Source: a virus. From it: DNA of 64,000 nt. The position numbers were made by a program, and so were the translations under genes. The stretch covers positions 14,394 through 78,393 of the IMG/VR virus record IMGVR_UViG_3300033155_000498; one strand, 5' to 3'. Below the pieces are notes generated by a model. The model was not told the origin of the DNA and did not search any database. It saw nothing but the letters and a program-made list of their open reading frames with translations. Of the stretch, positions 3,809 to 51,831 are shown piece by piece; the stretch's first letter is position 1; each line of letters opens with the position of its first letter.

Positions 3809-4399
3809 CTACGAGCGTGTGATGTTTACGGACTTGTGTGACCATACGTGCCCGCCGATATCACGCCAGCGGTTGCAAAATTCCCAGGACTCATCCTGCT
3901 CTATATTTTTGCGTACTGTGGTTTCGAAATATGATCTTAGTAAGGAATCATCGCTAAATGCAGATACACGTGGGTGGTCTTTTAGGTGTTCAAATGCTTC
4001 GCGGCTTATCATCATAAATCCGCCATCAACGTTATCAACTTCTCTAGTGTCAACTTCGTCTAGCATTTTAGTGGTACAGTATTGATTGACTGGACCAATT
4101 ATATGTTTCTTAGCTGAAAGTAACGCTAATACTTGCCATGGTTCAAATCTAACATCTGCGTCAATGAATAACAAATGTGTTAGTTTAGGGAAGTTTAAGA
4201 ACGTTGATACTAGAGTATTTTTTAAGCCTGGAACGAGTACAGCGGCTTCAGCTGTATGTCCAATGCCAATTTGTGTTGCTGTTTCGCTCCACATAACATA
4301 ACTTTGAAATGTGTGAGTGGATATACCGGGTTGGGAGAATATGCAGGTGTGTACGTGTTGTTCTTTAAGGTAGTCAATGGGTGCTAAATTTATGTTCAT
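3809..4399 (-). CDS. GT-A-type glycosyltransferase-like protein
   Basis: THLLFIDAD (DxD), GGFMMISREAFE, FCNRWRDIGG. Confidence 0.65.
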   Translation of the reverse strand: MNINLAPIDYLKEQHVHTCIFSQPGISTHTFQSYVMWSETATQIGIGHTAEAAVLVPGLKNTLVSTFLNFPKLTHLLFIDADVRFEPWQVLALLSAKKHIIGPVNQYCTTKMLDEVDTREVDNVDGGFMMISREAFEHLKDHPRVSAFSDDSLLRSYFETTVRKNIEQDESWEFCNRWRDIGGHVWSHKSVNITRS

Positions 4400-4429
4400 A
4401 ACTGTATTTAATACAATTATGTACGTAGT

Positions 4430-5086
4430 TTAAAATTTCGTAATAAACTCTACAAATTCGCGTATTAGATCTTCTGTTTGTACTACGCCTAGTTTCTTAT
4501 CAAACAAGTTGCGTAGTCCTTGTGGTACATCACCATAAAGGTCTGCAAGGATTTTGCCACGATTCTTATCTGTTGCTGTAGCATACATGTCGCGTATTTG
4601 AGTTGCGCCTTTTACCTTCTTGCCTGCTACTGGAAACTCGATAGTTGGTGTTACATACGCATACATATGGCCTGATGAAACTGGCTGCGCGTCTTTGCGT
4701 AACCACTGTATGGCTGCGCGTTCTCCGTTCTTTTTAACGGCGTACCCTTCTGCGTCTGTATTTGCGCCAACTAAACGATCACCATCTTTTTGGCTTACTG
4801 CAAGAATTATAACAGTATCAGTATCACTAAATGGAATTGCATCTTTAATAAACTTTTCGACGTACGGACTCTTAACTTTAACGAACTTATTAGCTGGAAT
4901 GCCCATTGCCGTTGCAATACGTTTCTTTTCGTTCCATGAAAATGGATCTCTTGGACCAGTTGCTTTTTCAGCTGATGCCATGAATACGCTATTAGCACCA
5001 AACTTTTGAGCTAGGTGATCGTAGGATGATTTATGGCCTTTGTGTGGCGGTTGGAATCGGCCGCCATATACAACTAATGTCTTCAT
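4430..5086 (-). CDS. Cytidylyltransferase-like (HxGH) nucleotidyltransferase
   Basis: YGGRFQPPHKGH; GATQIR. Confidence 0.8.
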   Translation of the reverse strand: MKTLVVYGGRFQPPHKGHKSSYDHLAQKFGANSVFMASAEKATGPRDPFSWNEKKRIATAMGIPANKFVKVKSPYVEKFIKDAIPFSDTDTVIILAVSQKDGDRLVGANTDAEGYAVKKNGERAAIQWLRKDAQPVSSGHMYAYVTPTIEFPVAGKKVKGATQIRDMYATATDKNRGKILADLYGDVPQGLRNLFDKKLGVVQTEDLIREFVEFITKF

Positions 5087-5094
5087 AGCTGTAT

Positions 5095-5430
5095 TTATTT
5101 CTTTTTAGGGAATGTTAAGATATTTGCATTTTGGTGTGCTTCTTCAAGTACCGTTTGCATAGCTAATGATTTTTGGAATTCTTCTACTTGTTTGTAGAAT
5201 ATTGTAACCATTGCGTTATAACGTGCAACAGGGTCTTTATATTTGGATAGGTCTTGCTCTAAGCGCCACTGTACTCCCCTGAGTCTTTCTTCTTTCTTAG
5301 GATCGCCTTCGGAAATACGAATAATTTCTTTATCTAATAAGTCTTTGCGGTAGTCTTCAAATGCTTCAGGATCAATCTTGGCCATCTCTACTAGCTGTGC
5401 AAACTTAGTATCAAAATCGTCGCCAAACAT
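5095..5430 (-). CDS. DUF3135-like protein
   Basis: FAQLVEMAKIDPEAFEDYR...RLRGVQWRLE...KDP pattern. Confidence 0.6.
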   Translation of the reverse strand: MFGDDFDTKFAQLVEMAKIDPEAFEDYRKDLLDKEIIRISEGDPKKEERLRGVQWRLEQDLSKYKDPVARYNAMVTIFYKQVEEFQKSLAMQTVLEEAHQNANILTFPKKK

Positions 5431-5802
5431 TTAATACCCGACTGATACTTTGTTAATAGTTCCTGCTGTAAACTGAGTTACAGTGGCTCGAAGCCATGTG
5501 TAGTTGCCTTCAAGATTAGCGAAGTTATTTTCGGTTAAAGGATTAATACCATCGCCGATTGTTTGGATTGGAAAATAATTGGGTGTGGTGTTATCTGCAT
5601 CTAGTGTAGCTTCAATAGTAATAATAGCTATTACGCCGGTTAAATACCAGGACAATGTTTGAACGCTCTTATCCTTAGAATAATATGCTGCGGCTTTTTG
5701 TGGTGGGCCACTAAAGTCTCCGCTATCAACAAGCGGATCATAGTTTCCGTTGGCTGTGGCAAACGTTGTTGATGGGATTAAATTGTACGATGATGTTTTC
5801 AT
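5431..5802 (-). CDS. Hypothetical beta-rich protein, probably structural
   Basis: ORF directly behind a TAAATA box; GNYTWLRATV. Confidence 0.5.
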   Translation of the reverse strand: MKTSSYNLIPSTTFATANGNYDPLVDSGDFSGPPQKAAAYYSKDKSVQTLSWYLTGVIAIITIEATLDADNTTPNYFPIQTIGDGINPLTENNFANLEGNYTWLRATVTQFTAGTINKVSVGY

Positions 5803-5803
5803 A

Positions 5804-6253
5804 TCAGTATTTATCTGTTATTTCAAACAATGGTTCTTGATCTTCTAACCAGTCTTTTATCATTTGTAGCTCTGTACGTGTTTTGACTGGATTATTAGGA
5901 AAGACCAACCCATCTATAGTTAGATCATATATGATACCGTCTCCGCTATCCTTACCACTGGATATCGGCACCAGCTGAAGATCAGTTTCTTCAATTAATT
6001 GAGATGCAATCTTACCCATTGGCGTTGGAAGCATTTCTACATGAGCTACAACATAGTCACCCTCTATAGAAAGGATCGCTTTAGCTGCAATGCGATCCAT
6101 AGTAGACGACTTAGGCACCGGGTATTCATCAAACGTAACAATACCAAGACCTTTGTTGAATTCTTCAACTGCTTTAACTAGTTCGTCTCTGGGGTAGATT
6201 CTACCTCTGCCATTGCCTGATACGACATCGCATTTGTAAATCTTTGCTTTCAT
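5804..6253 (-). CDS. Degenerate T4 gp21-like prohead protease paralog
   Basis: NGRGRIYPRDEL and LPTPMGKIASQLI resemble gp21; the GELxHP His motif is absent. Confidence 0.6.
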   Translation of the reverse strand: MKAKIYKCDVVSGNGRGRIYPRDELVKAVEEFNKGLGIVTFDEYPVPKSSTMDRIAAKAILSIEGDYVVAHVEMLPTPMGKIASQLIEETDLQLVPISSGKDSGDGIIYDLTIDGLVFPNNPVKTRTELQMIKDWLEDQEPLFEITDKY

Positions 6254-8571
6254 TACTTGTCAGGTTTAAATTGATCTAAAATAATATACCCATCATCGTC
6301 TGTGCCGCCAGGCTCTGGAGTGCCAGCTAATGGCTTAGGCAATGCTGCTGGCTGGATACCTTGCTTATTAAGGAATATAATCTCATCATCTTTTAAGTCT
6401 GCTACTATGGAACAATGACTTAAACCTTCAAACAAGATGCGCTTGCTAAGTGGTTTCTTAAGCAATTCAGAAATTTCACGCTTAATAGGTCTAGCACCAA
6501 GAGCTGCATCATAACCAACTGATGCGATGTGTGTAATTACAGTCTCATTAACGTGCAAATCGATCTTCTTAGATTTAAGGTTGTCTTTAAGTTCTTTGAT
6601 AAACTTAATAACAATCTTCTTGATATCCATATCTTCAAGTTTCTTAAATTTAGCAATACCATCAAGTCTGTTACGGAACTCTGGGCGGAAGAACTCTTTA
6701 ACTGCTTTATCTTCTTCACCTGTGCGTTCCATATCTGTAAAGCCGATACGGTTCTTTTCATTCTCAGCGGCACCAAGGTTGGATGTTAGTATAATAATAC
6801 AGTTACGTAGACTAACTTCCTTACCACTACGACTAGTAATCTTGCCTTCGTCTAGTACCTGTAACATTACGTTCATAACGTCCGGGTGTGCCTTTTCTAC
6901 TTCGTCAAATAGTAGTACAGAGAATGGGTGTTTGCTAACATCTGAAATTAACTTACCACCACCGCCTGCATCTTCAAATCCAACATAGCCTGGTGGAGCA
7001 CCAATTAATGATGCCACTGTGTGCTTCTCCATGTATTCTGACATGTCGTAACGTAGCAGTTCCATATCCAAATTATCACTAATTAACTTAGCAAGTTCTG
7101 TTTTGCCTGTGCCTGTTGGGCCAAGGAATAAGAAACTTGCGACCGGTTTGTTCTCTTCTGAAAGTCCACTAAAGTTAACATAGATCTTATCTAGTACTTC
7201 ATCGACGGCTTGTTCCTGACCGTACAGCTTGTCATCTATGTTATGCCTAAGCGAGATGAGTGATGCACTCTTTTCGTTACTTAGACGCTCAACTGGAACA
7301 CCTGTTATTTTACTAACTTGAACAATAACTTTATCTTCCGTTATAATTGCGGCCTGGGTATCATTTGCGCGTTCCTTAGCACATGCGGCATCGAGAATGT
7401 CAATTGATTTATCAGGGTTCTTTCTATTGTGTATGTAACGACTGCTTAAATCAACCGATGCCTCGATGGCTTCTTTATTAATTCGCACCTTGTGGAATTC
7501 ACTTAATCGATCGGCAACACCTGTTAGTATCTTGATCGTAGTTTCGTGATCTGGTTCATCAATTGTTAAGTTGTAGAACCTACGCATTAATGCTTTATCT
7601 TTTTCAAAGGACTCGTAGTATTCGTCCCATGTAGTGTTCGCAACAACCTTAATCTTGCCGCGTGTGATTACTGGTTTTAACATGTTTGCAAAGTCTAAGT
7701 TAGAACCTCCTCCTGCACCAGCACCTTTCATTGTGTGCGCTTCGTCAATAAACAAAATGCCGTTACCAGATGCTTCAAGTGCATTAATAACTTTCTTAAA
7801 TTTATCTTCAAAGTCGCCCCTGTACTTACTACCGGCTAGCATATCGCTAATATTGAGTTCCCATACAGTGTGATCATGTAAGAACGCAGGAACTGTCTTG
7901 GCAATAATTTGTTGTGCTAGGCCTTCAACGATTGCAGTTTTACCTACGCCCGGATCGCCTATCATTAGCACATTAGACTTAAATTTCTTAGCAAGGATTT
8001 CAATTGCGTCTCTGACTTCTTCAGTACGACCAATAAGCGGTTCTAACTCGCCCTTCTCGGCTCTAGCTGATAAGTTAGTGCAATGTTCTTCAAGCAACTC
8101 TGCAGACTGTACATCTGACAAGCCGCCTGTTGCATTGTTATAATGTTCGTTCCAGTATTCAGCAAAGTTTTCTTTGTCGTCAATGCCGTACTTTAAAATA
8201 AAGTAGTGTGCATGGCTGTTAGTTTCGCTTGAGATACTTAGAAATAAATCAATTGTTGTAACATAACGTCTGCCGCTGAATAACACTTGTGTCACAGCAC
8301 GGTTAAATACGCGCTCTAGACTATTTGTTCTTTTTGGTGCTTCTTCAGTTGGCTGGCCCTGAGTTGTTGGCAATAATCCATCTAGATATTCTTCAATGTC
8401 TCCAATTAAATCATCTATTTTAACGCCGTAACCTTTAGCGCAAAAGTAGAATGGTTCATAGCTTAGAAGTGCGACAAGCAAGTGTTCGAGTAATACGTAT
8501 TCGTGTCCTCGTTTTTTTGCTAGGGCAATTGCATAGTCTGTGATTTGTTCGATTTCTGGATTAATTTGCAT
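6253..8571 (-). CDS. clpA: ATP-dependent Clp protease ATP-binding subunit ClpA
   Basis: Clp N-domain (HEYVLLEHLL), two AAA+ modules GDPGVGKT and GPTGTGKT, DMSEY, GAPPGYVG, IGF loop; likely start MQINPEIE. Confidence 0.92.
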   Translation of the reverse strand: MQINPEIEQITDYAIALAKKRGHEYVLLEHLLVALLSYEPFYFCAKGYGVKIDDLIGDIEEYLDGLLPTTQGQPTEEAPKRTNSLERVFNRAVTQVLFSGRRYVTTIDLFLSISSETNSHAHYFILKYGIDDKENFAEYWNEHYNNATGGLSDVQSAELLEEHCTNLSARAEKGELEPLIGRTEEVRDAIEILAKKFKSNVLMIGDPGVGKTAIVEGLAQQIIAKTVPAFLHDHTVWELNISDMLAGSKYRGDFEDKFKKVINALEASGNGILFIDEAHTMKGAGAGGGSNLDFANMLKPVITRGKIKVVANTTWDEYYESFEKDKALMRRFYNLTIDEPDHETTIKILTGVADRLSEFHKVRINKEAIEASVDLSSRYIHNRKNPDKSIDILDAACAKERANDTQAAIITEDKVIVQVSKITGVPVERLSNEKSASLISLRHNIDDKLYGQEQAVDEVLDKIYVNFSGLSEENKPVASFLFLGPTGTGKTELAKLISDNLDMELLRYDMSEYMEKHTVASLIGAPPGYVGFEDAGGGGKLISDVSKHPFSVLLFDEVEKAHPDVMNVMLQVLDEGKITSRSGKEVSLRNCIIILTSNLGAAENEKNRIGFTDMERTGEEDKAVKEFFRPEFRNRLDGIAKFKKLEDMDIKKIVIKFIKELKDNLKSKKIDLHVNETVITHIASVGYDAALGARPIKREISELLKKPLSKRILFEGLSHCSIVADLKDDEIIFLNKQGIQPAALPKPLAGTPEPGGTDDDGYIILDQFKPDK

Positions 8572-10858: not shown

Positions 10859-12430
10859 CTACGAGTAATCAACAATGCCCTTGTTCTTCCAGCCCCATAT
10901 AGAGACTACAACAATAACAAGTGCAATGCCAATAAATGTTGGGTGGTTAAGTAAGTCATTGCTCGGTAATGACGCAATAGCTAGTTGACCTTCACCAACG
11001 TGATACCCGAATATCTCTTTAAGCCTAAGTAAGGGATATCCAGCTATATTAAATAATTGAAAAGTTTGTATCGTTAACTCTTCAATTTTGTATCCTAATA
11101 TAAACCCGATCATCAATGCGGGCCTACTAAATTCGTATACCTTCGCCATGTAGCCTACTATTGTAAATACAATTAGTAGCACGACATTTTCTATACCGTA
11201 AGTTCCAAAGCCTGATGTGTATGTTGCCCATACTATTAAAGATAGTATTATGGGAAAGTAATATTTATATGGCACATAGACTATGCGGGAAATATATTTA
11301 ATTGTGAACAGGCAAATGATTCCTGTTAGTAAAGTTGCTGCCAAAAAGCCTAAACTCATAGCATTAAAGAAGAGCGGATCTTTAAGAACATTTTCACTGT
11401 CTAATGACAGGTCAAAACCGATAGCAGTAAACAATCCTATTATAACAGCGGCAAACGGTGCGCCAGGTATTCCAAATAATACTGTTGGGATCATACTTGT
11501 TGCTTTCTGTGCGTTGTTGCTACCTTCTGGCCCAATGACACCTTTAATATTGCCATTGCCGAATTCCTCTTTTGGGTTCGTTGCAACGGTTTGTCCGTAT
11601 GCTAACCAGTCACTTACTGTGCCGCCTATGCCTGGTAAAAATCCAACAACAGAACCAATCGCACCACCCTTTAACGATAGTTTCCATTCTTTAAAAGATA
11701 TTGTAAATCCATCTTTGACTTGTTGCCAATCGTCTACTTTATGATGCTTGGAGAATATCGATTCTTTTTGTAACGCAATTATCATTTCAGGCATTGCAAA
11801 TATACCTGCCATAAGTGGAATTAACGGAATACCTTGACCACCATCGCCTTCTAAGAATTCCCAGCCCATTGTAAAACGTGGCGCTGCCGTAATCGGATCT
11901 GTTCCTATTAGGCTTAAAAATATACCAACCCCAAGTGCAATTAATGAACGTAACCAAAACTTATTAGACACGAAGCTAACTGTTATAAATGCAAGTATAC
12001 AAAATGCAAAAAGTTCAGACTGTCCAATGCCGCCCTGACTAGCAGGTAGTAATAAGAAGTCTTTGTAATAAGGTAATAACAAGAATGTTAACGCGCCGAA
12101 CAATAGTCCGTTGATAGTTGATGTTGTAATGGCTGCTGATAGTGCATAACTTGCCTTGCCTTGTTGTGCAAGTGGAAAGCCGTCTACCATTGTTGCTGCT
12201 GAACTGTTCGAGCCAGGTATCCCTAGTAAAATAGCTGCGAATGTATCACCTGTTGTACTCGACGCGACTACTGCCATTATGAATACAACTGAAAGATAAG
12301 GGTCAACACTTTGTAACATAATTATAAAAGGAAATAGTGCAACTAATCCTGTAGTCGCGCCTGCTGCTGGCACAAGTCCTATAAACAATCCGTAAAATGT
12401 TCCTGCTAATAAAGCTAATAAGTATGTCAT
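10859..12430 (-). CDS. tctA: Tripartite tricarboxylate transporter large permease TctA
   Basis: Multi-TM; GIPGSNSSAATMVDGFPLAQQGKA, GFLPGIGG, PEGSNNA, second GIPG. Confidence 0.9.
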   Translation of the reverse strand: MTYLLALLAGTFYGLFIGLVPAAGATTGLVALFPFIIMLQSVDPYLSVVFIMAVVASSTTGDTFAAILLGIPGSNSSAATMVDGFPLAQQGKASYALSAAITTSTINGLLFGALTFLLLPYYKDFLLLPASQGGIGQSELFAFCILAFITVSFVSNKFWLRSLIALGVGIFLSLIGTDPITAAPRFTMGWEFLEGDGGQGIPLIPLMAGIFAMPEMIIALQKESIFSKHHKVDDWQQVKDGFTISFKEWKLSLKGGAIGSVVGFLPGIGGTVSDWLAYGQTVATNPKEEFGNGNIKGVIGPEGSNNAQKATSMIPTVLFGIPGAPFAAVIIGLFTAIGFDLSLDSENVLKDPLFFNAMSLGFLAATLLTGIICLFTIKYISRIVYVPYKYYFPIILSLIVWATYTSGFGTYGIENVVLLIVFTIVGYMAKVYEFSRPALMIGFILGYKIEELTIQTFQLFNIAGYPLLRLKEIFGYHVGEGQLAIASLPSNDLLNHPTFIGIALVIVVVSIWGWKNKGIVDYS

Positions 12431-40594: not shown

Positions 40595-41377
40595 ATGAAT
40601 AGAGAAATAGCACAATACATCAGAGCCTCTATTAGAGACAACTCAATGAATATAAAGTACCAGCCACAGTTTTGTACTGAGGGTGACTATTTTAAGATTA
40701 CTGGAGTCGAGGCGTTGCTTCGGCCTGACACATCTGTATGTCATATTGACAAACTAATCAGGGTTGCTGTTGATACCGACCAGATGATCGATTTAGGTTA
40801 CTGGGTAATGAGGCGGGCGTGTCATCAGCTTAGATCATGGGTAGATGAGAATCTAGTTACTAGCACATTTTCAATGTCGGTTAACGTATCAGCAGAACAA
40901 CTGCAAGATAAACATTTCTGCACCAGAGTACTAGAAGTAATTCAAGACACAGAAATTAAAGCGCACCAGCTCACACTTGAGCTTACTGAAACATCAATGA
41001 TTAACGATTTGAACATCGCAAAGATATACCAGCTATCAACTAACGGTGTTAATATATCAATTGATGACTTTGGTACTGGATATAGTTCATTGGGCCGACT
41101 AAAATTACTGCCAATTCACGAAATTAAAATAGACAAGACATTTGTAGATGACGTCACAAAGACGGAGCAGGATATCGCTCTGATCACAGCGATGTATCAA
41201 CTAACTAAGGCGTTAAATAAATTTACTATTGTTGAAGGTGTAGAGAATACATGTCAGTATAATATTCTACGTGATATTGGATTTACTTGTTTTCAGGGTT
41301 ATTATTTTTGTAAAGCAGAAACTGCTGAAGAGATTGAAGAAACTATTACCCTAATAAATTCTTTACACTGCCAATAG
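40595..41377 (+). CDS. Stand-alone EAL-domain c-di-GMP phosphodiesterase
   Basis: YQPQ, VEALLR, SVNVS, LELTE, DDFGTGYSSL, KIDKTFV, EGVE, QGYYF. Confidence 0.92.
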   Translation: MNREIAQYIRASIRDNSMNIKYQPQFCTEGDYFKITGVEALLRPDTSVCHIDKLIRVAVDTDQMIDLGYWVMRRACHQLRSWVDENLVTSTFSMSVNVSAEQLQDKHFCTRVLEVIQDTEIKAHQLTLELTETSMINDLNIAKIYQLSTNGVNISIDDFGTGYSSLGRLKLLPIHEIKIDKTFVDDVTKTEQDIALITAMYQLTKALNKFTIVEGVENTCQYNILRDIGFTCFQGYYFCKAETAEEIEETITLINSLHCQ

Positions 41378-41885
41378 TATCCAACGTTAAATTATCAAGG
41401 TCCCGTGTCCAGCTTGCCAACTCGTGTGTGTAATCAACTAATACAAATTGTGTTGTATCATTGGCTTTAATTAACTCGCGTATATTGAAATAATATTCTT
41501 CTTGTGATGGATTTGTTTCTGTAATAGGACTAAAATTAAATCCTGTCATTAGCACAATATCAGATTGCGGTACTGCAAGGTTCAAGGCGACAATATCGTC
41601 TTTGTTACCAACTGAACTATTTTTGAATTGCCCGTTGAATAGTTTGACCCCAGATGGGTTGCCAACTACGGAATAACTTTCTTGCATGATATATAAAGTA
41701 CAAACGGCATGGAAAGCACGTTGGATTAAATTCTTAGCTTCGTTGGTGTCGGAACAAACACAATTGTCTGGGCGAAATTCTTTCCACGTTTTCCAACTGC
41801 CCCAAGATACTGCTGTATTCTTAATGTCTTTTGGATCTATTAAACCTGATGGGATATCTTCACTAATTATCCAGCATACTTTCAT
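41346..41885 (-). CDS. Hypothetical protein
   Basis: ORF. Confidence 0.55.
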   Translation of the reverse strand: MKVCWIISEDIPSGLIDPKDIKNTAVSWGSWKTWKEFRPDNCVCSDTNEAKNLIQRAFHAVCTLYIMQESYSVVGNPSGVKLFNGQFKNSSVGNKDDIVALNLAVPQSDIVLMTGFNFSPITETNPSQEEYYFNIRELIKANDTTQFVLVDYTHELASWTRDLDNLTLDTIGSVKNLLG

Positions 41886-43423
41886 ATTGTAGCCTTAAGT
41901 GCTATCCAGCTATAGTCATGCAAACAATACCATGCAAAGATTGGATTGTCTTCTGTTAATGTTGTATTCAGTACTAAATCACCTGACGCACCTGCATATC
42001 CAGGCACACTGTTACCATGCTTAATTGTGTGATTACCTAGTTTAAGTTTTCGAATTGTTACTACGCCATCAGTGTCAATAGATATATCATCACGACGTTT
42101 AACACCAATTGCTAAGTCCTGTGATCTATTAGTACCAATGAATGCAGTTTGTTCTTTAAGTTTGCCTATAATAATTTCAATTTCGTCGTCCCAAACAGCT
42201 AATGCTGAGTTCGGTGTTTTAGTATTAATGCCAACTCTCTTATCTACCGAGTGTATTGCATCTACAGTAGATGTTCCGATTACCTTTAATCCTTTTAATG
42301 TACCAACTGTGTTTAACGTTGAATTGGTTATTTGGCTGCCTAGTGTGTTACCTGATAATGCTGGTTTTCCATTAATAGATATCTGTGTAAAGTCTAAATC
42401 ATTAGATTGTGATATTACTGCGTCAATCATATCTTGCTTAACTGCAATTATAACTTCATCTACTACTGCAATTTTAATATTCGACGATAACTCATCCCAT
42501 GCACCTGTTGTAATATCTATTGATCCATTAACTAGTAGGTCACCACTAATGGTTGCATTCTTAACGGCTAGTTGTTCATATACACTGACATTTGTTGCTG
42601 CTATTGTGTTTTCAACAACAACGGTATCTTCCATTATTGTCATTTCGCGTTTAGTCGCATTACAGTGGAGGCCCATGCCATCAAATTGTTCTGCAAATTG
42701 TTCTGCGATCTTGTCAGTTATAATTTTTTCAATATCGCTTTCTGCGCTGAGTTGACGTATGAATGATGAAATTGCTTGTGTCTTAAGAGATCCTAACATC
42801 TTTGGATCATTTTTAATAAGCAATCCGATTTGAGTTGCTGCTCCATCAGCGACGTTTTTTGCAACTGTAGAATTAATAATAGCAGGATCAAATAACCCGG
42901 TATCTTCAGTAACTAAGAGTTTAGCTATTTCTGCTGCTACTTCTCCAGTCATGCTTTGTTTAACTAGTGTGTCAAGATTAAAGTTACGCACTAGAAGAGA
43001 TACGGCCTGACTTTGAAGATTCAGTAGTAACTCTTTGTCGTTCTTAAAGAGACCTGCAACTTGCTTGCTGACCGCATCGCTAACATTACCAGTAAGAGAT
43101 TCTATCATTGTTGGATCATTTTTAATAATCGATCCAAGTTGTGTTGCTGTTGCATCACCTATTGCAGAATTAATAATAGCAGGATCAAGTAAATCGGTAT
43201 TTTTAGTTACTATAAGTTTAGCCACTTCTGCTGCTACCAGACCGGATATGTTTTGTTTAACTATTGTGTCAAGGTTAAAGTTACGTACCAGAAGAGATAC
43301 GGCTTGGCTTCTAAGATTTTCTATTAATTTTGTGTCAGTTTTAAAAAGATTAGCAACTTGCTCTGTTACTGCCTCATTGACTTTAGCTGTTATTGCGGCA
43401 TTAATTTCATCTTGGTTAATCAT
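41882..43423 (-). CDS. Virion/fibre-like structural protein with internal tandem duplication
   Basis: SQAVSLLVRNFNLDT twice; LNTVGTLKGL and RVGINT.TP fibre-type motifs. Confidence 0.6.
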   Translation of the reverse strand: MINQDEINAAITAKVNEAVTEQVANLFKTDTKLIENLRSQAVSLLVRNFNLDTIVKQNISGLVAAEVAKLIVTKNTDLLDPAIINSAIGDATATQLGSIIKNDPTMIESLTGNVSDAVSKQVAGLFKNDKELLLNLQSQAVSLLVRNFNLDTLVKQSMTGEVAAEIAKLLVTEDTGLFDPAIINSTVAKNVADGAATQIGLLIKNDPKMLGSLKTQAISSFIRQLSAESDIEKIITDKIAEQFAEQFDGMGLHCNATKREMTIMEDTVVVENTIAATNVSVYEQLAVKNATISGDLLVNGSIDITTGAWDELSSNIKIAVVDEVIIAVKQDMIDAVISQSNDLDFTQISINGKPALSGNTLGSQITNSTLNTVGTLKGLKVIGTSTVDAIHSVDKRVGINTKTPNSALAVWDDEIEIIIGKLKEQTAFIGTNRSQDLAIGVKRRDDISIDTDGVVTIRKLKLGNHTIKHGNSVPGYAGASGDLVLNTTLTEDNPIFAWYCLHDYSWIALKATI

Positions 43424-43461: not shown

Positions 43462-44454
43462 TCAAGTCGCCCGTAGCAAATCAAGAGTTGCACAATGAAA
43501 CCCACCGCCCAATGTACGTGCGTGACGCAACTCAAGTGGTATCACATCAAACCCGTGCTTCTTTAATTCAGCATGTATCAGCGGCTGATTAGCATCACAG
43601 ATTACTGTCTTGTTGCCTACAGATAACATGTTAATAGCTATCCATTTACTTGCATATGGATAGCCTGTAAACGATTGCGGATTAATCATATCCTCTGTAA
43701 TATATATTTTATTGTAGTCTTGTAAGAATTCTGGTAAATTGTCATCAGTAACGCGATTGGCATTTAACAATATATCGTTTTCACCAATGGGTATAATAGT
43801 GCTGTCTATGTGCGCTGCATCATAAACATCTGTTGTATGTACCGTGAACATATCACCTAGTACAGTTTGCAGCCATTCGGCTCCACGCTCGTTGGCGGAG
43901 TCACTAACAAGATACAATATATCAAATCCGAACCTTGCTATGTTTGCAGCATCAAAGATAGGTTCCATATTTGTTAAACTAAAACTGCCAGTGGGCAATA
44001 CGTTTTCGCTATATATTAAATCTGGGTGTGGGGCCGCTATCCACTCAACACCTGTGCGTATAGCCCAACGCTTTACTTCTCTATAACATTGTACTTCATG
44101 CTGCCTAGCTCGTACTGACATTGGTGCTTCGATTACCCTGTCGCCAATAACTAGTAAATTGTCGCGTGGGCAATATGCGTACTGCCCATCAGTAAATTGA
44201 AAATTAATTGGCTCGGGCCTATATACAGTAATACCAAGATCATCAAACGTTTCGCACAGGGTATCCAAGTCACGATTGGTTTCGTCTATTATTTGTTGTG
44301 CGACTGGTCCGGCAGGCGGAGGTGTTTCGGCCCAGCCTGCATCGGCCATTTGTAATTGAAATAGTTTATCTGCGGTTGGAAAATTAGCGTGTGTTGCTGT
44401 TCCTACAAGGACAGTCTTGAGTGGATCGTATTCGTTAAAACTAGAAATTATCAT
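43462..44454 (-). CDS. Amidinotransferase (glycine/inosamine-phosphate amidinotransferase family)
   Basis: NEYDPLK.V.VG, CPRD, FDAAN, HIDST, GGGFHCATLDL. Confidence 0.9.
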   Translation of the reverse strand: MIISSFNEYDPLKTVLVGTATHANFPTADKLFQLQMADAGWAETPPPAGPVAQQIIDETNRDLDTLCETFDDLGITVYRPEPINFQFTDGQYAYCPRDNLLVIGDRVIEAPMSVRARQHEVQCYREVKRWAIRTGVEWIAAPHPDLIYSENVLPTGSFSLTNMEPIFDAANIARFGFDILYLVSDSANERGAEWLQTVLGDMFTVHTTDVYDAAHIDSTIIPIGENDILLNANRVTDDNLPEFLQDYNKIYITEDMINPQSFTGYPYASKWIAINMLSVGNKTVICDANQPLIHAELKKHGFDVIPLELRHARTLGGGFHCATLDLLRAT

Positions 44455-44986
44455 CTATCATAAACCCTGTTAACTGTAATGTGTATCTATCTTCTAAGCC
44501 TAAGTTTGCTGCCATGTGTGGCACGTCATGTCTGAATCGCACAAAGTCGCCCGCCTTCCATTGCGGGAATTGTTTGTCTGCAACTGTTAATACATGACCA
44601 GGCGCCCAGTCTTCAAGCATTATAACCGCACGATAAATTGGGCTATGGTAATCAGCATGAAGTTCCTTAAAGCGTCTAAATGTGTCTACGTGTTCGGGTA
44701 GGATTGTTCCTGTGGACATCTTGTAGAATGACCAACTTAACTGATACCACGGAAATTCTTTTAAATATGGGTCCATATTAAGCCATGCAGGCCACGGGTG
44801 TTGCATGTCATACATTTCACCTGTGTAGTGTGTATGTGTGTGACCTTGGGCTTGCCATTTATCTATGTCATCCTGATTATTAAATGGTTCACGTCTATAT
44901 GAAAGCAATCGATGACCGTAATTAGTCCACGGTAGATCTATATGCCCAAACTCATAATAGAAATCAGTCACTGCGGGTATCACCAT
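44441..44986 (-). CDS. 2OG-Fe(II)/Asp-beta-hydroxylase-like oxygenase
   Basis: ILPEHVD, WKAGD, PHMAANLG..DRYTLQLTG; start uncertain. Confidence 0.7.
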   Translation of the reverse strand: MVIPAVTDFYYEFGHIDLPWTNYGHRLLSYRREPFNNQDDIDKWQAQGHTHTHYTGEMYDMQHPWPAWLNMDPYLKEFPWYQLSWSFYKMSTGTILPEHVDTFRRFKELHADYHSPIYRAVIMLEDWAPGHVLTVADKQFPQWKAGDFVRFRHDVPHMAANLGLEDRYTLQLTGFMIDDNF

Positions 44987-46196
44987 AATGTATAATTGTA
45001 TACATGTCGTTCTCTTTATTAATTCTGCGCCATGGGTCAATAATAACACAACCAGGTAACATTTCAAAATATGTATTGTCGTCTTGCATGTTGCCTGTGT
45101 AGCCGTAAGTGATGTTCCTGTTGTGTGCCCAAAGAACAACTGCCTGCATGGGTTCTAGTTCGTCGCCTGTAAGCGGATCAGCATAGGATACGCTGTGACC
45201 CGTTCCTTCGATGTAATGTCCAATAAGTGTACTATAGCTGCCTATTGTGTAAGGAACATCAGGCTTGTATGCTTTGCCGTGTATTACAATCGGAAGCTGT
45301 TCTTTTTCTGCTACGTCAACAATAAACTTAGCAAGGTTCTCTGCTTGTACTTCACGTGCGCCCATAATGGTCTGGAACATGTCGTAACCAATTTCATATT
45401 CTTGCGCGAGCCAACGCAATGCAATATTATCACGTGGGTGACATGCTCCCGAGTCGCCCATGCCAGGTACCATGTACTGTGGACTTTGCAGACGCATAGT
45501 GCTTCGTGCTAATGCACTAGCTACAACGTCTGAATTCATGTTGCCAATCTTCATTGCAAAATCTTGTATCATATTAACAATGCCAATCTTTGCGCTTATG
45601 TACGTATTGTAGAAAATCTTAATACCTTCAGCTTCTTCCCACGTGCCTATTTCTGCACGGGTTTTGTTTCGCATGTGCATTCTACTATAAATTTTAACTA
45701 ACTCGTCTACACGAGGATCGTTGCCATCCTTGCTGCCAATTATTAGCATCTCAGGATTAACCATATCCCACTTAGTGGTGCCCATTGCAATTAAATATGG
45801 ATTGTAAATTAATGTGTGACTGTCTAGTAAGTCATCAAACTCCCTGCGGGTGGTGCCTGGCAATACTGTACTGATTAGTACAATGTTCTTTTCTACTGAT
45901 GCACATCTGTTGATTTCTTTTAGCACATCTTTAACAATAGTGTAATCAAAATCTTTTGGCTCTAAATGGCATGACGGGATGCCGCCACCGTATTCTTCAT
46001 CATGTGGCGTAGGTACTGCAATAAAAATCCATTCACTGTTATCACATACATCTTTAATACTGTCTTTTACATCTACTAGATCAGACTCCACTGGTGCGAC
46101 ATCATATCCAACTGTTGGAAATGTCTCTGCAAATACTTCTGCACAATCCATGCCCAATTTGCCTAAGCCAATGAACCCTATTTTTTCTTCTCGCAT
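44964..46196 (-). CDS. UDP-glucose/GDP-mannose dehydrogenase family
   Basis: IGFIGLGKLG, IAVPTP, STVLPGTT, KIFYNTY, GACHPRD, AYKPD; start MREEK with GGAG. Confidence 0.9.
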   Translation of the reverse strand: MREEKIGFIGLGKLGMDCAEVFAETFPTVGYDVAPVESDLVDVKDSIKDVCDNSEWIFIAVPTPHDEEYGGGIPSCHLEPKDFDYTIVKDVLKEINRCASVEKNIVLISTVLPGTTRREFDDLLDSHTLIYNPYLIAMGTTKWDMVNPEMLIIGSKDGNDPRVDELVKIYSRMHMRNKTRAEIGTWEEAEGIKIFYNTYISAKIGIVNMIQDFAMKIGNMNSDVVASALARSTMRLQSPQYMVPGMGDSGACHPRDNIALRWLAQEYEIGYDMFQTIMGAREVQAENLAKFIVDVAEKEQLPIVIHGKAYKPDVPYTIGSYSTLIGHYIEGTGHSVSYADPLTGDELEPMQAVVLWAHNRNITYGYTGNMQDDNTYFEMLPGCVIIDPWRRINKENDMYTIIHYGDTRSD

Positions 46197-46218
46197 GTTC
46201 TCTCCACTAAGTAGTATT

Positions 46219-47508
46219 ATGTTTTCAGTCGACAACTTTTACAACTATTTAAACCAGTATCTCCAGACCAATAAAAAAGATGCAAATATGAAATCGTTTA
46301 ACGTACACGGTTCTCGGTTACTTAAAGATATTATTATACCTTCTTTTAACATTGGTGAATCCAAACCATTCCGGTTTAACGGACAAGTCGCAATGTTTGA
46401 TCAGGAACCAATTGAGCTTTCATATTATGAAGATTGGATTAATTTCGATCCTGAATCTTTTCCCGAGCATTATGAATATAATCAAACTGGCGACTTATAC
46501 AAAAATCTTACACCCCAGGAGTTTATCTTTAGACACTTTTCTGGTGTGTATAATCCTATACTTTGCCATTCAGAACGCAATAGCCCAGAAGTAGAATTGT
46601 TTAAAGCTAATCATTTTCATCCTGTACATTATTTCTATCACGGGTTAATTGCACGTGATTGGTTTAGGCATTGGAAACATTATAACATGAAACCAGGTAC
46701 AGAGTCAAAACGTCTGGGCATGTATTGCCGTGATGCTACTGGTAGTAGGACATACCGTTTAGATTTACTTAACAAGTTAATTCCGTTAAAAGATGAGTTA
46801 TATTATAATCTGCAGGATCCAATCTTTCAACTTGATCCACAGCTTAACATACATTATCAAAGTGGTGATACTCAATACGATAGTCATGCAAGTGCAACTA
46901 TTGTACCTGAGGATTGTCAAGAATTTGATATACAAATTGTGCCCGAAACATTGTTTGATACACAAAAAACACATTTAACCGAAAAGGTATTTAAACCTAT
47001 TGTAATGGAACAGCCGTTTATAATCGTTGGTTGTCCGAACAGTCTTGAGTACTTACAGAGTTATGGTTTCCAAACGTTTGGAAGTATTTGGGATGAATCG
47101 TATGATAAAGAAACTGATCCTGCAATCCGCATGGACAAAATAATAAACGTTGTGAAGTCTATAACTTCGCTTAACGAGCGGGAATATAAAAATGCAATGG
47201 GCAAAGCCCGTAGCATCGCAAAGTATAATCGCCAGCGTTTTTTCTCTGGTGTCTTTGAAGATATACTACTTAATGAATTGCACACTAACCTAGATGCTGC
47301 AATTGAAAATCGCAATAAAGAATATGAATCTATGCCTGGTGGCACATGGTTTATGTATTTAGATAAACTAGTTGAAAGTGGTTATACCATTCCAGAATAT
47401 ATCTCAGAACGCAATCATGAAATTATAAAATATCTATTAACTAACGACCCAATAATGGGCCGCAAGTTAATGATAAAATATAAACACTTATTAAATAGGT
47501 GTAATTAG
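46219..47508 (+). CDS. Glycosyltransferase-like protein
   Basis: VPET..HLTEKVFKPI..QPFIIVG..L.YL..YGFQTF..WDESYD; start MFSVDN at TAAGTA-N5-ATG. Confidence 0.55.
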   Translation: MFSVDNFYNYLNQYLQTNKKDANMKSFNVHGSRLLKDIIIPSFNIGESKPFRFNGQVAMFDQEPIELSYYEDWINFDPESFPEHYEYNQTGDLYKNLTPQEFIFRHFSGVYNPILCHSERNSPEVELFKANHFHPVHYFYHGLIARDWFRHWKHYNMKPGTESKRLGMYCRDATGSRTYRLDLLNKLIPLKDELYYNLQDPIFQLDPQLNIHYQSGDTQYDSHASATIVPEDCQEFDIQIVPETLFDTQKTHLTEKVFKPIVMEQPFIIVGCPNSLEYLQSYGFQTFGSIWDESYDKETDPAIRMDKIINVVKSITSLNEREYKNAMGKARSIAKYNRQRFFSGVFEDILLNELHTNLDAAIENRNKEYESMPGGTWFMYLDKLVESGYTIPEYISERNHEIIKYLLTNDPIMGRKLMIKYKHLLNRCN

Positions 47509-47820
47509 TCCGAAGTGTGTTGCTGCTACAATAGCACCAATAATCAAAGCCATAACAATCAAGGAAACATCGCGTTTCTTTTTCTTCTTAGCTGCTACTT
47601 GAACTGGAGTATCTAGCTCGATTACTTCCGCTTCAGGTTTCTTAGCTTGTTCAGGCATAGCCTTCTTCTTAGCTACTGTTTTCTTTTTAGCTACTGCTTT
47701 TTTAGCAGGTGCTTTCTTTTTAGCAACTGCTTTTTTAGCTGGTGCTTTCTTCGCTACTTTTTTCTTGACCGTTGATTTCTTCTTGGACGGTGTTTTCTTT
47801 TTGTCGTCTGACATTGTCAT
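47491..47820 (-). CDS. Lys/Ala-rich histone-H1-like protein with C-terminal TM anchor
   Basis: AKKAPAKKAV repeats; hydrophobic tail. Confidence 0.6.
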   Translation of the reverse strand: MTMSDDKKKTPSKKKSTVKKKVAKKAPAKKAVAKKKAPAKKAVAKKKTVAKKKAMPEQAKKPEAEVIELDTPVQVAAKKKKKRDVSLIVMALIIGAIVAATHFGLITPI

Positions 47821-47826
47821 CTCCTT

Positions 47827-48207
47827 TTAATCATGAATTGAGTTCTTGCCAATTTTCTGTAAGAACCAACCCCACGACGTAACTGATGCAATTAATAACA
47901 TCTTACGCCATTTTTTAATGTCCAATACATCAATTTCTTTTTTAAATTGATAATTGGCTTTAGCCCAATCATGTTCTGTTACTATTATATAGTCATGAAC
48001 TATGGCCGCACCAAAATATCTTCCTGTTGGCGAAAACCACATACGAGCGTAAAATGGTATGCTCGCGCCGTCAGTAATGAATCCTATCGGAACATTAACT
48101 TCTTCATTATTAGAAGTATAAACTTCCATTAATTCCCACTTGGCACGTTTGTACCATTTCACTGCTGGGATAAACTTTACTACTACTGTATCTCTCACTG
48201 AACACAT
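47827..48207 (-). CDS. DUF1353-like protein
   Basis: VPIGFITDGASIP, AAIVHDY. Confidence 0.75.
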   Translation of the reverse strand: MCSVRDTVVVKFIPAVKWYKRAKWELMEVYTSNNEEVNVPIGFITDGASIPFYARMWFSPTGRYFGAAIVHDYIIVTEHDWAKANYQFKKEIDVLDIKKWRKMLLIASVTSWGWFLQKIGKNSIHD

Positions 48208-48259
48208 TCCTCTATAGGCTATTATTTATTTAAATTTAGTGGGAAATAGTGTGGTTAGA

Positions 48260-49102
48260 TTACCAAGTTATAGCATCAACTGCGGCTTCGTCTGCTGCGG
48301 CTAATACTTGCGCTTTCTTAACATTGAACTTCTGTAAGACTGTAAGTTTAACATCCTTACCATCGTTAATGACTACTAACAATTCGGTGTTAGTGTGTAA
48401 CTTGTATATTTTTTCTGACGTGCCCGCTGCTGTTACACCAACAGATGCATCACCAATTGCAACATACCCTGTAATACTACTAAACAATGTAGTATCAACA
48501 ATGTTGATAGATGATGTAACATCATACACACCGCTACCCAACGTTAAGTTACCACCCGACAATACTACGCTTGCGGGATTAGTACCAAGGTCTAAATCAC
48601 CTTGTATTTGTGTAACTAAATCATCAATTGTTTGTGCTGTAGCACCTTCAATACTAACGAAAGTACTCACTCCATCAATAACAATTTCTGCATCATATGT
48701 TGTTGCATCATTTGCAAATCCTGTAGCATCTGTGCCTACTTTCGTTCCGTTGACATCTATTACTATGGCACTATTAATACCCGGACGACACGAATACGGC
48801 ATAGTTGATTGTGTTGCAACCGCGCCTATTAGGTTCAATTGATCATCACGCTCAGAATCATACCAGTGCGGGGAACCTAGTGCTTCTGATTCGAAACCGT
48901 CAATTATTTCGGCTTCTGCGTTGGCACCGAATGCCACTAGTTTTATTGTCATGTAATCAAGTAATTGTTTACCGTTTAATTCAGCTTCTGGAATTGGTGT
49001 TGTAATCCAATTAATGTTTGCATACACAGTTGGATTACCACTTGACCATGCTTCAGCTGCTGGATAATATTGACCTATTAGGTTCATGTAGTTCGTTGCC
49101 AT
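48260..49102 (-). CDS. Tail-fibre-associated protein, DUF4376-like with insertion
   Basis: GFESEALGSPHWYDS..DQLNL and HT..EL..V..DG, AVDAITW. Confidence 0.6.
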   Translation of the reverse strand: MATNYMNLIGQYYPAAEAWSSGNPTVYANINWITTPIPEAELNGKQLLDYMTIKLVAFGANAEAEIIDGFESEALGSPHWYDSERDDQLNLIGAVATQSTMPYSCRPGINSAIVIDVNGTKVGTDATGFANDATTYDAEIVIDGVSTFVSIEGATAQTIDDLVTQIQGDLDLGTNPASVVLSGGNLTLGSGVYDVTSSINIVDTTLFSSITGYVAIGDASVGVTAAGTSEKIYKLHTNTELLVVINDGKDVKLTVLQKFNVKKAQVLAAADEAAVDAITW

Positions 49103-51831
49103 TATAGTGTTACCACCTCTTCAATTACGTATGCATTGTTTGTTAATACACTACCAAACACTGTTAGAATGCTATCGTGTTCATTTATATACCATGTTGC
49201 ATTACCACTCTCTTTACCTACACGAACTGAGTATGTAATTGGTGTGGCTGCTACGCCAGCTACTGGATCTTTTACAATGAATGAAATTACCTGGAATGCA
49301 CCACCATTTGTAGCAGAGTCATTCATAACGCCGATACATACGTTATCTCTAAACAATGCCACAATAATTGCTGATGATGCGTTTGTAACTAAGAATGCAA
49401 ATGACTGTGATATTTTCAATGATCCGCCTGTTTGGCTTGGCGTAAACACCTGTGACCAAAGTTCAGTGCCTTCTGTAATTAGTGGTGCTGTTGTTGTCTG
49501 TACGATAATCGTTGTACCTGACAAAGCCGGAACTGTGCCAGAAACTTGTTGAATTGATTGTTCTGTACCTGGCGTAAACAACTGTGTATTCTGCCATTCA
49601 CCTGCGCCGCCATCGTAATATACAACATCACCAGAGGCTGGTGCGGTTGTGTTAACATCTGTTAAGTTATTAAGTACTAATCCATCAGCATTAACAGATA
49701 ATGTTTCGTTTCCAGCATCGTTATTCTCTACTAGTGACACGCCTGTGCCAGCTACTAACTTACCATTTAAGTAACCACTTGTTGTATCGTTTGCAGACAC
49801 TTTGACTAATACGTCTGAGCCTGCTCCTGCTGGTTGGTTAACCCAGTCGCCGCCTGCGTATGTTAATACTTCACCGTTACTTGGCGTTGTTATTATAACG
49901 TCTGATAAATCACCAATTGCAGATACGCCAGCGCCTGGTGCTTCCCATACTGAATTGCCTAACCCATCAGCTGTTAATACAAAACCATCTGTAATTGCGC
50001 TTGCATCGATTTCTGTACCTTCGTGTACGTGAGTTGTTAATGAATAACTACCAAGGTCACTAATTTGACTTTCAGTAATACTAATTGATGCCTGCGTATA
50101 ATGTATAGTACCATCTACGATATGAGCATCTATAGCTGCATGAGAGTTGGTACCGATATTGCTAAACAATGTGTGATCTGTTGTGTCAGTTAATGAGTAC
50201 GCCTGCAAGTCACTAATTTGACTTTCAGTAATTACAATGTTGGCCTGATTAACATCAATATCAACCTCAGAGTTTGCAACATCATCAGTAATACTAATTA
50301 AGTTACTACCTGCATTGATATTCTTAAATTGTAATCCTACACCGACCTTCTGAAGATATAAACCTGTGCCTCCCACGCCAACATTAGATGCTGTATTAGC
50401 TTCGCCGCCACCTGCTCCTGGAGGCGCTGCTGCCTGCCATTCTGTGCCGCTCCATGTTAAAACATCGTTAGCTATTGGTGTTGCATTAACATCATTTAAA
50501 TTATTAATTGGTGTTGCTGTTAAGCTGCCATCCACCGCAACTGCGAATACAGTAGTTGCGCCATCGTCAATACCCTCGATTAAGTTACCGCCAACTGCGG
50601 CACCTTCTGTAATAGTAACAGCACCGCGAGTTGCGTCTGTTAATATTTCTGGATTAACACTGTTATCGTATGCTTGTTGCAAAGTAGTTACTGATCCAGA
50701 GAACTGGCCGCCACCACCTTGTCCAAACTTGGCTGCTTCAATGAATTCAGCCTGTGCTGGATCACTTAAATCTGTTGCGCCTGCAGATACTAGTAAGTAT
50801 GCTCTAATAACGCCTTCTGCGAACGCTGCGTTATGAACGTGCTGTGCATCTGGCAATACGTCTAATGCGGCGGCTTTAGTTGAGAATGTTTGTTGTCCGT
50901 ATTCAATACGTGTTGTTGCTGCGCCGGAAATTCCTGAGAAGTATTTAATAATTTGTATCTGCCAGCGTCCATTTGGCATTGATGAAAGTGTACCGGTTCC
51001 ATCATCATAGTTGCTTGAGTCAACAGACGTAGCTGGTGGTGTTACTAATGTGTGACCACCACCACCATTTTGGTAGCTGTAAATAAATGGTACAATCGTT
51101 CCTGACGCGTCAGTATTTGAATCTGTGTCTCTCTTATTGTTTGCAAAGTTATTACCAAGTCTATATGTAGTACCTGAGCTCTTATTAAGTAATATGTTAT
51201 TACCGTTTGGTCCGAAAATGTTACCTTCAATATTCAACGAACCAATAGCTCTTGCTAGGTCAGCTAAACGTGCTGTGGCATCAATTGCCGGGTCTGGGTT
51301 ATTACGCAAACCAACAATACTAGTAAGATTAGCGTGTCCTAGGTTACCAAGCACGATGTTATCTTTGTGTTCGGTGTTCGTCCATGATGCGCCTGACTGT
51401 ACAATACTGCCTACAGAATTGATTGCAATAAATGAACGTGTTGTTATTGCAAGGTTTGTTACTACAACCGCTGCGGAAGCCCCCCATGTTACTAAGGCCG
51501 CTGTAGGGTTTAGTGTGTCTGTGTAGTTGTCAACAATAAGGCCAATGCCTGCTGCTACATCAAATTTAGTAGGGTCTACATTAATGCTTAGTTCGCCGCC
51601 GTCTAATAAACCAGTTGATGCCATTTGGTCTACACCAATTTGCGTGCCTGATTTAATTAGGTCCCAGTCTGTATCTGTTGCTCCAACCTTAATCCAAAGT
51701 TGGCCTGTGGTTCGTAATAGAACTGAACCAATTGGTGCTGTATATCCTGCACTCGACGGGTCAACAGAAGTTTGTGCGATATCAACTAAGTCGTCTAATG
51801 TTAAACTGCTGATTGGAAAATTAGCTGCCAA
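49102..51831 (-). CDS. Tail fibre-like protein
   Basis: LxDLxDV and Gly/Thr-rich repeats; modules shared with other fibre genes. Confidence 0.7.
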   Translation of the reverse strand: MAANFPISSLTLDDLVDIAQTSVDPSSAGYTAPIGSVLLRTTGQLWIKVGATDTDWDLIKSGTQIGVDQMASTGLLDGGELSINVDPTKFDVAAGIGLIVDNYTDTLNPTAALVTWGASAAVVVTNLAITTRSFIAINSVGSIVQSGASWTNTEHKDNIVLGNLGHANLTSIVGLRNNPDPAIDATARLADLARAIGSLNIEGNIFGPNGNNILLNKSSGTTYRLGNNFANNKRDTDSNTDASGTIVPFIYSYQNGGGGHTLVTPPATSVDSSNYDDGTGTLSSMPNGRWQIQIIKYFSGISGAATTRIEYGQQTFSTKAAALDVLPDAQHVHNAAFAEGVIRAYLLVSAGATDLSDPAQAEFIEAAKFGQGGGGQFSGSVTTLQQAYDNSVNPEILTDATRGAVTITEGAAVGGNLIEGIDDGATTVFAVAVDGSLTATPINNLNDVNATPIANDVLTWSGTEWQAAAPPGAGGGEANTASNVGVGGTGLYLQKVGVGLQFKNINAGSNLISITDDVANSEVDIDVNQANIVITESQISDLQAYSLTDTTDHTLFSNIGTNSHAAIDAHIVDGTIHYTQASISITESQISDLGSYSLTTHVHEGTEIDASAITDGFVLTADGLGNSVWEAPGAGVSAIGDLSDVIITTPSNGEVLTYAGGDWVNQPAGAGSDVLVKVSANDTTSGYLNGKLVAGTGVSLVENNDAGNETLSVNADGLVLNNLTDVNTTAPASGDVVYYDGGAGEWQNTQLFTPGTEQSIQQVSGTVPALSGTTIIVQTTTAPLITEGTELWSQVFTPSQTGGSLKISQSFAFLVTNASSAIIVALFRDNVCIGVMNDSATNGGAFQVISFIVKDPVAGVAATPITYSVRVGKESGNATWYINEHDSILTVFGSVLTNNAYVIEEVVTL

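Follow-up and report, generated by a model that had tools for sequence, protein, structure and literature searches.

The closest solved relative of the amidinotransferase studied here is StrB1, the L-arginine:inosamine-phosphate amidinotransferase of streptomycin biosynthesis in Streptomyces griseus (PDB 1bwd). Glycosylation by virus-encoded enzymes is itself already known from chlorovirus capsid glycans, the mimivirus L230 hydroxylase/glucosyltransferase and mycobacteriophage virion glycosylation, and we know of no amidinotransferase in any of these systems. In Pseudomonas, UDP-2,3-diacetamido-uronic acid is made with a 6-dehydrogenase (WbpA), a 3-oxidase (WbpB) and a DegT aminotransferase (WbpE). 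Here, a cassette of four genes at positions 43462–47508 of a 64,000-nt stretch (the window, to which all coordinates refer unless a locus is named) of IMG/VR record IMGVR_UViG_3300033155_000498, an uncultured giant phage, was analyzed. The genes encode a StrB1-type amidinotransferase, a small Fe(II)/2-oxoglutarate (2OG) oxygenase, a nucleotide-sugar 6-dehydrogenase and a predicted GT-B fold glycosyltransferase (GT). On balance, and with modest confidence, we favor the view that they form the core of a virus-specific pathway of nucleotide-sugar tailoring and transfer that yields a guanidino sugar. The novelty would lie in an arginine-dependent amidinotransferase being wired into virus-encoded glycosylation.

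A related module has been published for Synechococcus phage S-SCSM2R (PQ898602), in which ORF305–310 form one co-oriented run encoding a half-size DegT/AHBA-synthase-like protein (mini-DegT), a radical SAM protein, a GT, a 2OG oxygenase, an amidinotransferase and a GT2. The amidinotransferase, mini-DegT and radical SAM protein were annotated as "antibiotic synthesis genes" and the GTs as cell-wall modification genes; this is annotation only, with no product identified (PMC12801897). The S-SCSM2R oxygenase and amidinotransferase were 27% and 36% identical to the window proteins, and the mini-DegT lies three genes upstream of the pair. The module differs from the cassette in having no dehydrogenase annotated in the stretch shown, in its other GT families and in its place on a T4-like cyanophage island. 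In the literature searched, we found no characterized phage pathway of this composition and no bench work on the cassette, in agreement with an earlier sequence-only reading of the locus that knew of no such pathway.

That reading had also described three overlapping minus-strand genes and a divergent GT-like gene, with 22 bp between the two ATGs, and had assigned the four enzymes. The coordinates bear out this layout, and all four assignments were upheld by homology, catalytic residues and predicted folds:

43462–44454, minus strand: StrB1-type L-arginine amidinotransferase, 330 amino acids (PDB 1bwd match and catalytic residues)
44441–44986, minus strand: small Fe(II)/2OG oxygenase (AspH/P4H-like cupin), 181 amino acids (invariant motifs and predicted fold)
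44964–46196, minus strand: nucleotide-sugar 6-dehydrogenase, putatively of the UDP-Glc/GDP-Man dehydrogenase family, 410 amino acids (Pfam, PHROG)
46197–46218, no strand: 22-bp spacer separating the start codons of the divergent dehydrogenase and GT genes (sequence)
46219–47508, plus strand: predicted GT-B fold glycosyltransferase (GT10-like), 429 amino acids (predicted structure)

The reading described a real, intact cassette that is conserved widely. The amidinotransferase and oxygenase genes overlap by 14 nt and the oxygenase and dehydrogenase genes by 23 nt, and a GGAGAG Shine–Dalgarno sequence precedes the dehydrogenase ATG. The oxygenase start (ATG, giving MVIPAVTDF) agrees with the N-termini of homologues. 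For the GT, the start at 46219 was favored over a shorter database gene call because the N-terminal residues M1, F2, S3, F7 and Y8 are conserved in 40 homologues. The dehydrogenase and GT genes also stand head to head in L016 and L017, the nearest relatives, with the same spacing (matched coding ends ~23 bases apart), as well as in most of the 80 viral loci described below. A promoter and terminator scan gave no difference from shuffled sequences. When the 4-kb stretch was searched as DNA against 50,697 phage records, there was no near match, and the sole distant match was 143 bp in the dehydrogenase of Pelagibacter phage HTVC008M. The parent contig of 78 kb was estimated to be 22% complete, which would give a phage genome of roughly 350 kb; among relatives with closed genomes, the nearest is a contig of 344 kb that bears terminal repeats.

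The amidinotransferase matched StrB1 over residues 2–328 (E 3.8e-80, 272 bits), and matched HsvA, AGAT and SxtG more weakly (1e-39 to 1e-43, 140–151 bits). Its score against Pfam PF02274 was 16.5, below the cut-off of 22.8. Residues D98, H215, D217 and C321 align with D108, H227, D229 and C332 of StrB1 and are invariant in 22 homologues, so that the Cys/His/Asp set is intact, as had been read from the sequence. The phage enzyme is thus like StrB1 in its full-length homology and shared catalytic set, whereas the loci differ. The S. griseus gene (L124) has no oxygenase, dehydrogenase or GT within 10 kb, the viral enzymes form clades of their own, and the complete phage relatives have no inositol genes. 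In a midpoint-rooted tree, the root of which is uncertain and which shows two viral clades, the window enzyme fell inside a viral clade with support of 0.98.

Bacteria commonly carry StrB1-like amidinotransferases, with 456 loci that include Streptomyces, cyanobacteria and Acidobacteriota. Within 10 kb of the bacterial genes, among them those of S. griseus, Streptomyces bluensis and cyanobacteria, there was no oxygenase, dehydrogenase or GT, with the exception of four short contigs assigned to metagenome-assembled genomes (MAGs). All four contigs carry cassette partners and amidinotransferases that fall within the viral clades, and one also carries the 179-residue phage gene described below; they are probably phage DNA mis-binned into MAGs. 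The contigs L101, L122, L126 and L165 are labeled Haliscomenobacter, Terrimicrobiaceae, Legionella and Pseudobdellovibrionaceae, respectively. Because the bacterial genes lack these partners apart from the phage-like MAG contigs, the cassette is a viral assembly and not a whole copy of a known bacterial cluster.

In the oxygenase, the iron triad H99-x-D101...H157 and the pair R167-x-T169 are invariant in 42 homologues. The predicted model (pLDDT 92) gave P4H, AsqJ and AspH as best Foldseek matches (E 2e-5 to P4H). Nearly all of the 50 VIA matches shown were 2OG oxygenases of the double-stranded beta-helix fold, with Z 12.5 to P4H (root-mean-square deviation [rmsd] 4.5, 153 residues aligned), followed by PolD (11.4), EvdO2 (11.3), AspH (11.2), PasI (11.0) and the mimivirus lysyl hydroxylase (9.5). 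Since the sugar- or nucleoside-modifying enzymes PolD, EvdO2 and PasI lie within ~1.5 Z of the top match, the fold has no power to tell the substrate class. TET/JBP-type DNA oxygenases were not among the fold matches listed. The window protein reached 17.2 bits against PF05118, short of the gathering score of 22.6, and was therefore placed at superfamily level only; 15 of its 42 homologues matched PF05118 at E ≤ 0.01 (best 1.7e-5). The oxygenase family has more than 1000 cluster representatives.

The dehydrogenase matched PF00984 (1.1e-13, 51.5 bits) and PF03721 (4.2e-13, 49.7 bits), both above the cut-off, as well as phrog_9148, "UDP-glucose dehydrogenase" (1e-81). Its catalytic Cys lies in GDSGACHPRD, which aligns with GYGGYCLPKD of PDB 7kws. 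These matches point to a divergent member of the UDP-Glc/GDP-Man dehydrogenase family.

For the 429-residue protein, no Pfam, PHROG or NCBIfam match was found, and 40 homologues had no Pfam match either. Its homologues number 788, none with a functional name, and the family is viral according to the protein atlas. The predicted model (pLDDT 92) shows the two Rossmann-like domains of the GT-B fold. In VIA, it matched the alpha-1,3-fucosyltransferase 5zoi with Z 10.4 (rmsd 4.8, 259 aligned), the T4 beta-glucosyltransferase (1c3j) with Z 10.2 and the T4 alpha-glucosyltransferase with Z 9.1; 37 chains had Z ≥ 8, and most of the matches shown were GT-B glycosyltransferases. The Foldseek matches shown were nearly all GT-B, with weak E-values of ~1e-3. 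From its modeled structure, the protein would be a GT-B glycosyltransferase of a virus-only family; in having no sequence family assignment, it differs from the viral glycosylation systems introduced above. The atlas lead to PF00852 (GT10) scores 0.80–0.81 only. The invariant residues E243-T244...H252-x-T254-E255-K256 presumably resemble the "TEK" motif of fucosyltransferases, which we take as a lead only. Paralogues of this GT family number 5–8 per genome in the large relatives G001–G004, three of which are complete, and some stand beside full-length DegT genes. This indicates a large virus-encoded capacity for building glycans and fits glycan construction. Examples of such regions are found at 224–229 kb of G003 and 42–47 kb of G004.

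The conservation of the gene set was measured in 80 viral loci retrieved with the oxygenase as the sole query; at least 542 viral stretches were confirmed to encode an oxygenase relative. Both the dehydrogenase and the amidinotransferase were present in 78 of the 80 loci, and a GT homologue lay within 10 kb in 63. Identities of the cassette proteins across these loci ranged from 27 to 86%, with GT homologues down to 27–40%, and the cassette was retained in at least five gene orders. An oxygenase::GT fusion was found in eight cluster representatives. In further loci, the oxygenase and GT were encoded by an uninterrupted frame of 568–592 amino acids in 10 of 12 cases and by two adjacent genes in two. 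In locus L195, a single open reading frame of 1039 amino acids joins dehydrogenase, GT and methyltransferase, and is followed by genes for a B12 radical SAM protein, an aminotransferase, an amidinotransferase, an oxygenase::GT fusion and a carbamoyltransferase. A mini-DegT::oxygenase fusion rests on one predicted protein (P0471), as this protein was not located in viral contigs. A lack of co-conservation had been named beforehand by the sequence-only reading among the grounds that would refute it; the data clearly contradict this, as the genes were found together in hundreds of diverged phage contigs, in several orders and with fusions.

Some variants of the cassette contain further enzymes. 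A large radical SAM protein (with a B12-binding domain in L195) and a NodU/CmcH-type carbamoyltransferase, both typical sugar-tailoring enzymes, are encoded at 10510–12540 of L018 and at 4183–6447 and 9907–11394 of L195. In L070, a GTP cyclohydrolase I gene (11154–11837; PF01227, 5e-39) lies between the mini-DegT and amidinotransferase genes, with a PnrA/Bmp-like binding protein encoded downstream, and L081 and L082 have a like-sized gap at the matching place. The gene may have been inserted by chance, or it may hint at a cassette variant linked to purines or pterins.

An amidinotransferase requires an amine acceptor, and no aminotransferase is encoded in the 78-kb fragment; a candidate amine-forming enzyme is found only in relatives. 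The mini-DegT protein (~200 amino acids; 212 in G001, the closest complete relative) matched PF01041 in two stretches (2e-16, 60.5 bits against a cut-off of 19.8). Its pyridoxal phosphate (PLP) lysine K124 (SF..K124) and D95 are invariant in 12 sequences, and WbpE is among its few PDB matches. It is a putative half-size sugar aminotransferase of the DegT/DnrJ/EryC1 family. The mini-DegT gene is inserted exactly between the oxygenase and amidinotransferase genes in ~17 of the 80 loci. It is also present in all four large relatives (G001–G004), and stands beside a GalE-like epimerase gene in G001, G003 and G004. In G001, it lies ~60 kb from the cassette in an operon (L179 174–2698, ~95–98 kb) that encodes a GalE-like UDP-hexose 4-epimerase of 326 amino acids (PDB 4twr, 5e-76), the mini-DegT and a second extended short-chain dehydrogenase/reductase (SDR) of 310 amino acids. 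In L070, genes for SDR, GalE, dehydrogenase, oxygenase, mini-DegT and amidinotransferase are combined in one run. With the aminotransferase gene standing between those for the oxygenase and the amidinotransferase, the gene order suggests that a keto group is formed, then transaminated and finally amidinated, and the links to GalE/SDR enzymes, dehydrogenase and GTs would place this chemistry on a sugar.

Enzyme families, catalytic residues, folds, co-occurrence, rearrangements and fusions were computed, and from them we infer substrate, order of steps, product and acceptor. In the proposed pathway, a nucleoside diphosphate hexose of the host, probably a UDP-hexose, would be oxidized to the uronic acid by the dehydrogenase. 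A ring position would then be converted to a keto group, or hydroxylated, by the Fe(II)/2OG oxygenase, and the keto group would be turned into an amine by the mini-DegT encoded elsewhere in the genome of the lineage. The StrB1-type enzyme would transfer the amidino group of L-arginine to this amine, giving the guanidino sugar and ornithine. Finally, the GT-B transferase would attach to an acceptor either the finished sugar or the uronic acid, which would then be tailored in place. The logic is shared with the Wbp route of Pseudomonas, in which 6-oxidation yields a uronic acid, the ring is oxidized to give a keto sugar, and a DegT enzyme carries out the transamination. In the phage, however, ring oxidation would fall to an Fe/2OG oxygenase and not to an NAD enzyme, the aminotransferase has only half the usual size, and amidination of the amine would take the place of acetylation. 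Like the known viral glycosylation systems, the phages have GTs and sugar enzymes of their own beside structural genes, and oxygenase::GT fusions as in L230/LH3. Because a DegT aminotransferase, GalE-like/SDR enzymes and GTs join the cassette elsewhere, a guanidinylated sugar is the best-supported class of product. The sequence-only reading had proposed a guanidinylated or hydroxylated sugar for fibers, host surface or DNA; this is partly supported, in that a guanidinylated sugar is favored and the DNA target found no support, for reasons given below.

The likely acceptor was considered from the genes around the cassette:

41346–41885, minus strand: conserved partner of 179 amino acids, overlapping the end of the 513-residue gene
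41882–43423, minus strand: 513-residue protein, fiber-like in sequence appearance only, with an internal repeat in its N-terminal half
47827–48207, minus strand: DUF1353/tail-assembly-chaperone-like gene (PF07087, 6.2e-16; PHROG)
48260–49102, minus strand: gene of a PHROG tail-fiber family
49102–51831, minus strand: gene of a PHROG tail-fiber family

The PHROG matches across 47827–51831 were phrog_1158, phrog_1348 and phrog_16641. The 513-residue gene starts 38 bp downstream of the amidinotransferase gene on the same strand, and its homologues follow the amidinotransferase gene in at least 19 of the 80 loci. The 179-residue gene comes directly after the amidinotransferase gene or the 513-residue gene in at least 35. 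The cassette had been described as lying between fiber genes, which was confirmed on the high-coordinate side by the PHROG tail-fiber families; on the low-coordinate side, the 513-residue gene, with no family match, is a putative fiber gene by its appearance. As the cassette sits in a tail-fiber block, co-oriented with the fiber-like and 179-residue genes, a virion surface protein is the most likely acceptor, and a glycan of the host envelope the next. A broader and more tentative proposal is that large aquatic phages decorate their fibers, other virion surfaces or the envelope of the infected cell with a guanidino-uronic-sugar glycan, with oxygenase, mini-DegT and amidinotransferase acting in sequence; in this specific form we consider it possible but rather doubtful.

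Several neighboring genes were observed besides. None of 18 members of the 179-residue family had a Pfam match and the protein had no PDB-profile match; its identification as MptE-like/WaaZ, an atlas lead scoring 0.85–0.88 only (0.88 for MptE-like), was unsupported. This protein could itself belong to the pathway. A Lys/Ala-rich protein of 109 amino acids (47491–47820, minus strand) has KKxAKK repeats, a 33-nt tandem period at 47669–47751 and a hydrophobic C-terminal anchor, and gave no family match; the 3′ end of its gene overlaps that of the GT gene by 18 nt. A stand-alone EAL domain protein (40595–41377, plus strand; PF00563, E 1.7e-53) is encoded on the strand opposite to its neighbors, and its gene is conserved beside the cassette in relatives (60–74% identity).

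Several points weigh against the guanidino-sugar pathway. Product, substrate and acceptor have been observed for no member of these families. The nearest folds of the oxygenase are protein prolyl and aspartyl hydroxylases, and keto formation on a sugar by a 2OG oxygenase would be unusual. The dehydrogenase scored below the cut-off of TIGR03026 (1.3e-34, 119.7 bits against 189.8), and no PF03720 match to a C-terminal nucleotide-binding domain was obtained at E 0.01. With no aminotransferase in the 78-kb fragment, the amine source was extrapolated from a relative with cassette proteins 61–74% identical. The neighboring 513-residue "fiber" has no Pfam, PHROG or PDB match. In addition, the gene set co-occurs to a large extent in big phages that are related to one another, and common descent may account for part of the synteny.

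The oxygenase folds raise the possibility that the cassette acts on protein. The oxygenase would then hydroxylate a residue of a virion or fiber protein, the GT would add a uronic acid, and the amidinotransferase would modify either a lysine of the protein or the sugar so attached, following the logic of LH3 and mimivirus L230. The top folds are indeed protein hydroxylases (P4H with EF-Tu, PHDs, AspH and the mimivirus lysyl hydroxylase), the oxygenase::GT fusions mirror LH3-type bifunctional enzymes, and the cassette lies inside the fiber module. However, PolD, EvdO2 and PasI score so close to the top that the fold does not discriminate. The DegT gene between oxygenase and amidinotransferase, also fused to the oxygenase, points instead to keto, amine and guanidine formation in turn on a small molecule or sugar, and no collagen-like or other recognizable target motif was identified. 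We regard this explanation as unlikely.

The "antibiotic synthesis genes" annotation published for S-SCSM2R (PMC12801897) leads to a different product, a diffusible compound with a guanidino group, resembling an aminoglycoside, aminocyclitol or nucleoside, that would be made during infection to act against competitors or to manipulate the host. The relationship to StrB1 agrees with this, as do the B12 radical SAM and carbamoyltransferase partners, which are typical of aminoglycoside tailoring. Inositol-phosphate synthase (PF07994) and Gfo/Idh/MocA dehydrogenase (PF01408) were, however, found in none of the complete relatives, so the aminocyclitol (streptidine-like) route was unsupported. The GT fusions and the 5–8 GT paralogues suit a glycan better, the cassette showed neither an exporter gene nor a resistance gene, and the location is among structural genes. 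We consider a diffusible product quite unlikely.

DNA hypermodification, in which the GT and amidinotransferase would decorate a modified base, is very improbable. Fold matches of the GT include the T4 beta- and alpha-glucosyltransferases, distant amidinotransferases (25–27% identity) occur in Campylobacter phages with unusual DNA, and the GTP cyclohydrolase I of L070 and the gaps in L081 and L082 could be read in the same way. However, the fold matches are generic for GT-B, and the cassette lies in a tail-fiber module and not in a nucleotide-metabolism module. A thymidylate-synthase-family gene was present in one of three complete relatives, where it scores as the canonical enzyme, and was therefore not conserved; a TGT/DpdA gene was found in none of them. 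DNA as the target, one of the options of the sequence-only reading, thus has no support. That the genes share no function and are unrelated accessory genes kept by inherited synteny is the least probable explanation and is disfavored, because, although the 179-residue and fiber-like genes beside the cassette are also shared by the related large phages in which many of the loci lie, the set survives at least five orders, enzyme insertions and gene fusions, and recurs in a T4-like cyanophage at 27–39% identity.

The guanidino-sugar pathway therefore remains the reading that we prefer. With more than 1000 oxygenase cluster representatives and at least 542 viral stretches, its product is likely common in lakes and oceans. 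For making guanidino sugars, the enzymes would offer new tools in the form of a half-size PLP aminotransferase, a small 2OG oxygenase active on sugars and a GT family that has no classification. The question can be tested because S-SCSM2R, which carries a related module, is in culture. If the pathway is as proposed, a guanidino sugar would for the first time be found beyond the aminoglycoside antibiotics, and viral glycans would gain a new class, the charge of which possibly tunes adsorption. The presence of a cationic or zwitterionic sugar on virions or on infected cells would have consequences for host recognition, for withstanding the enzymes of hosts or grazers, and for how arginine and nitrogen are used during infection.

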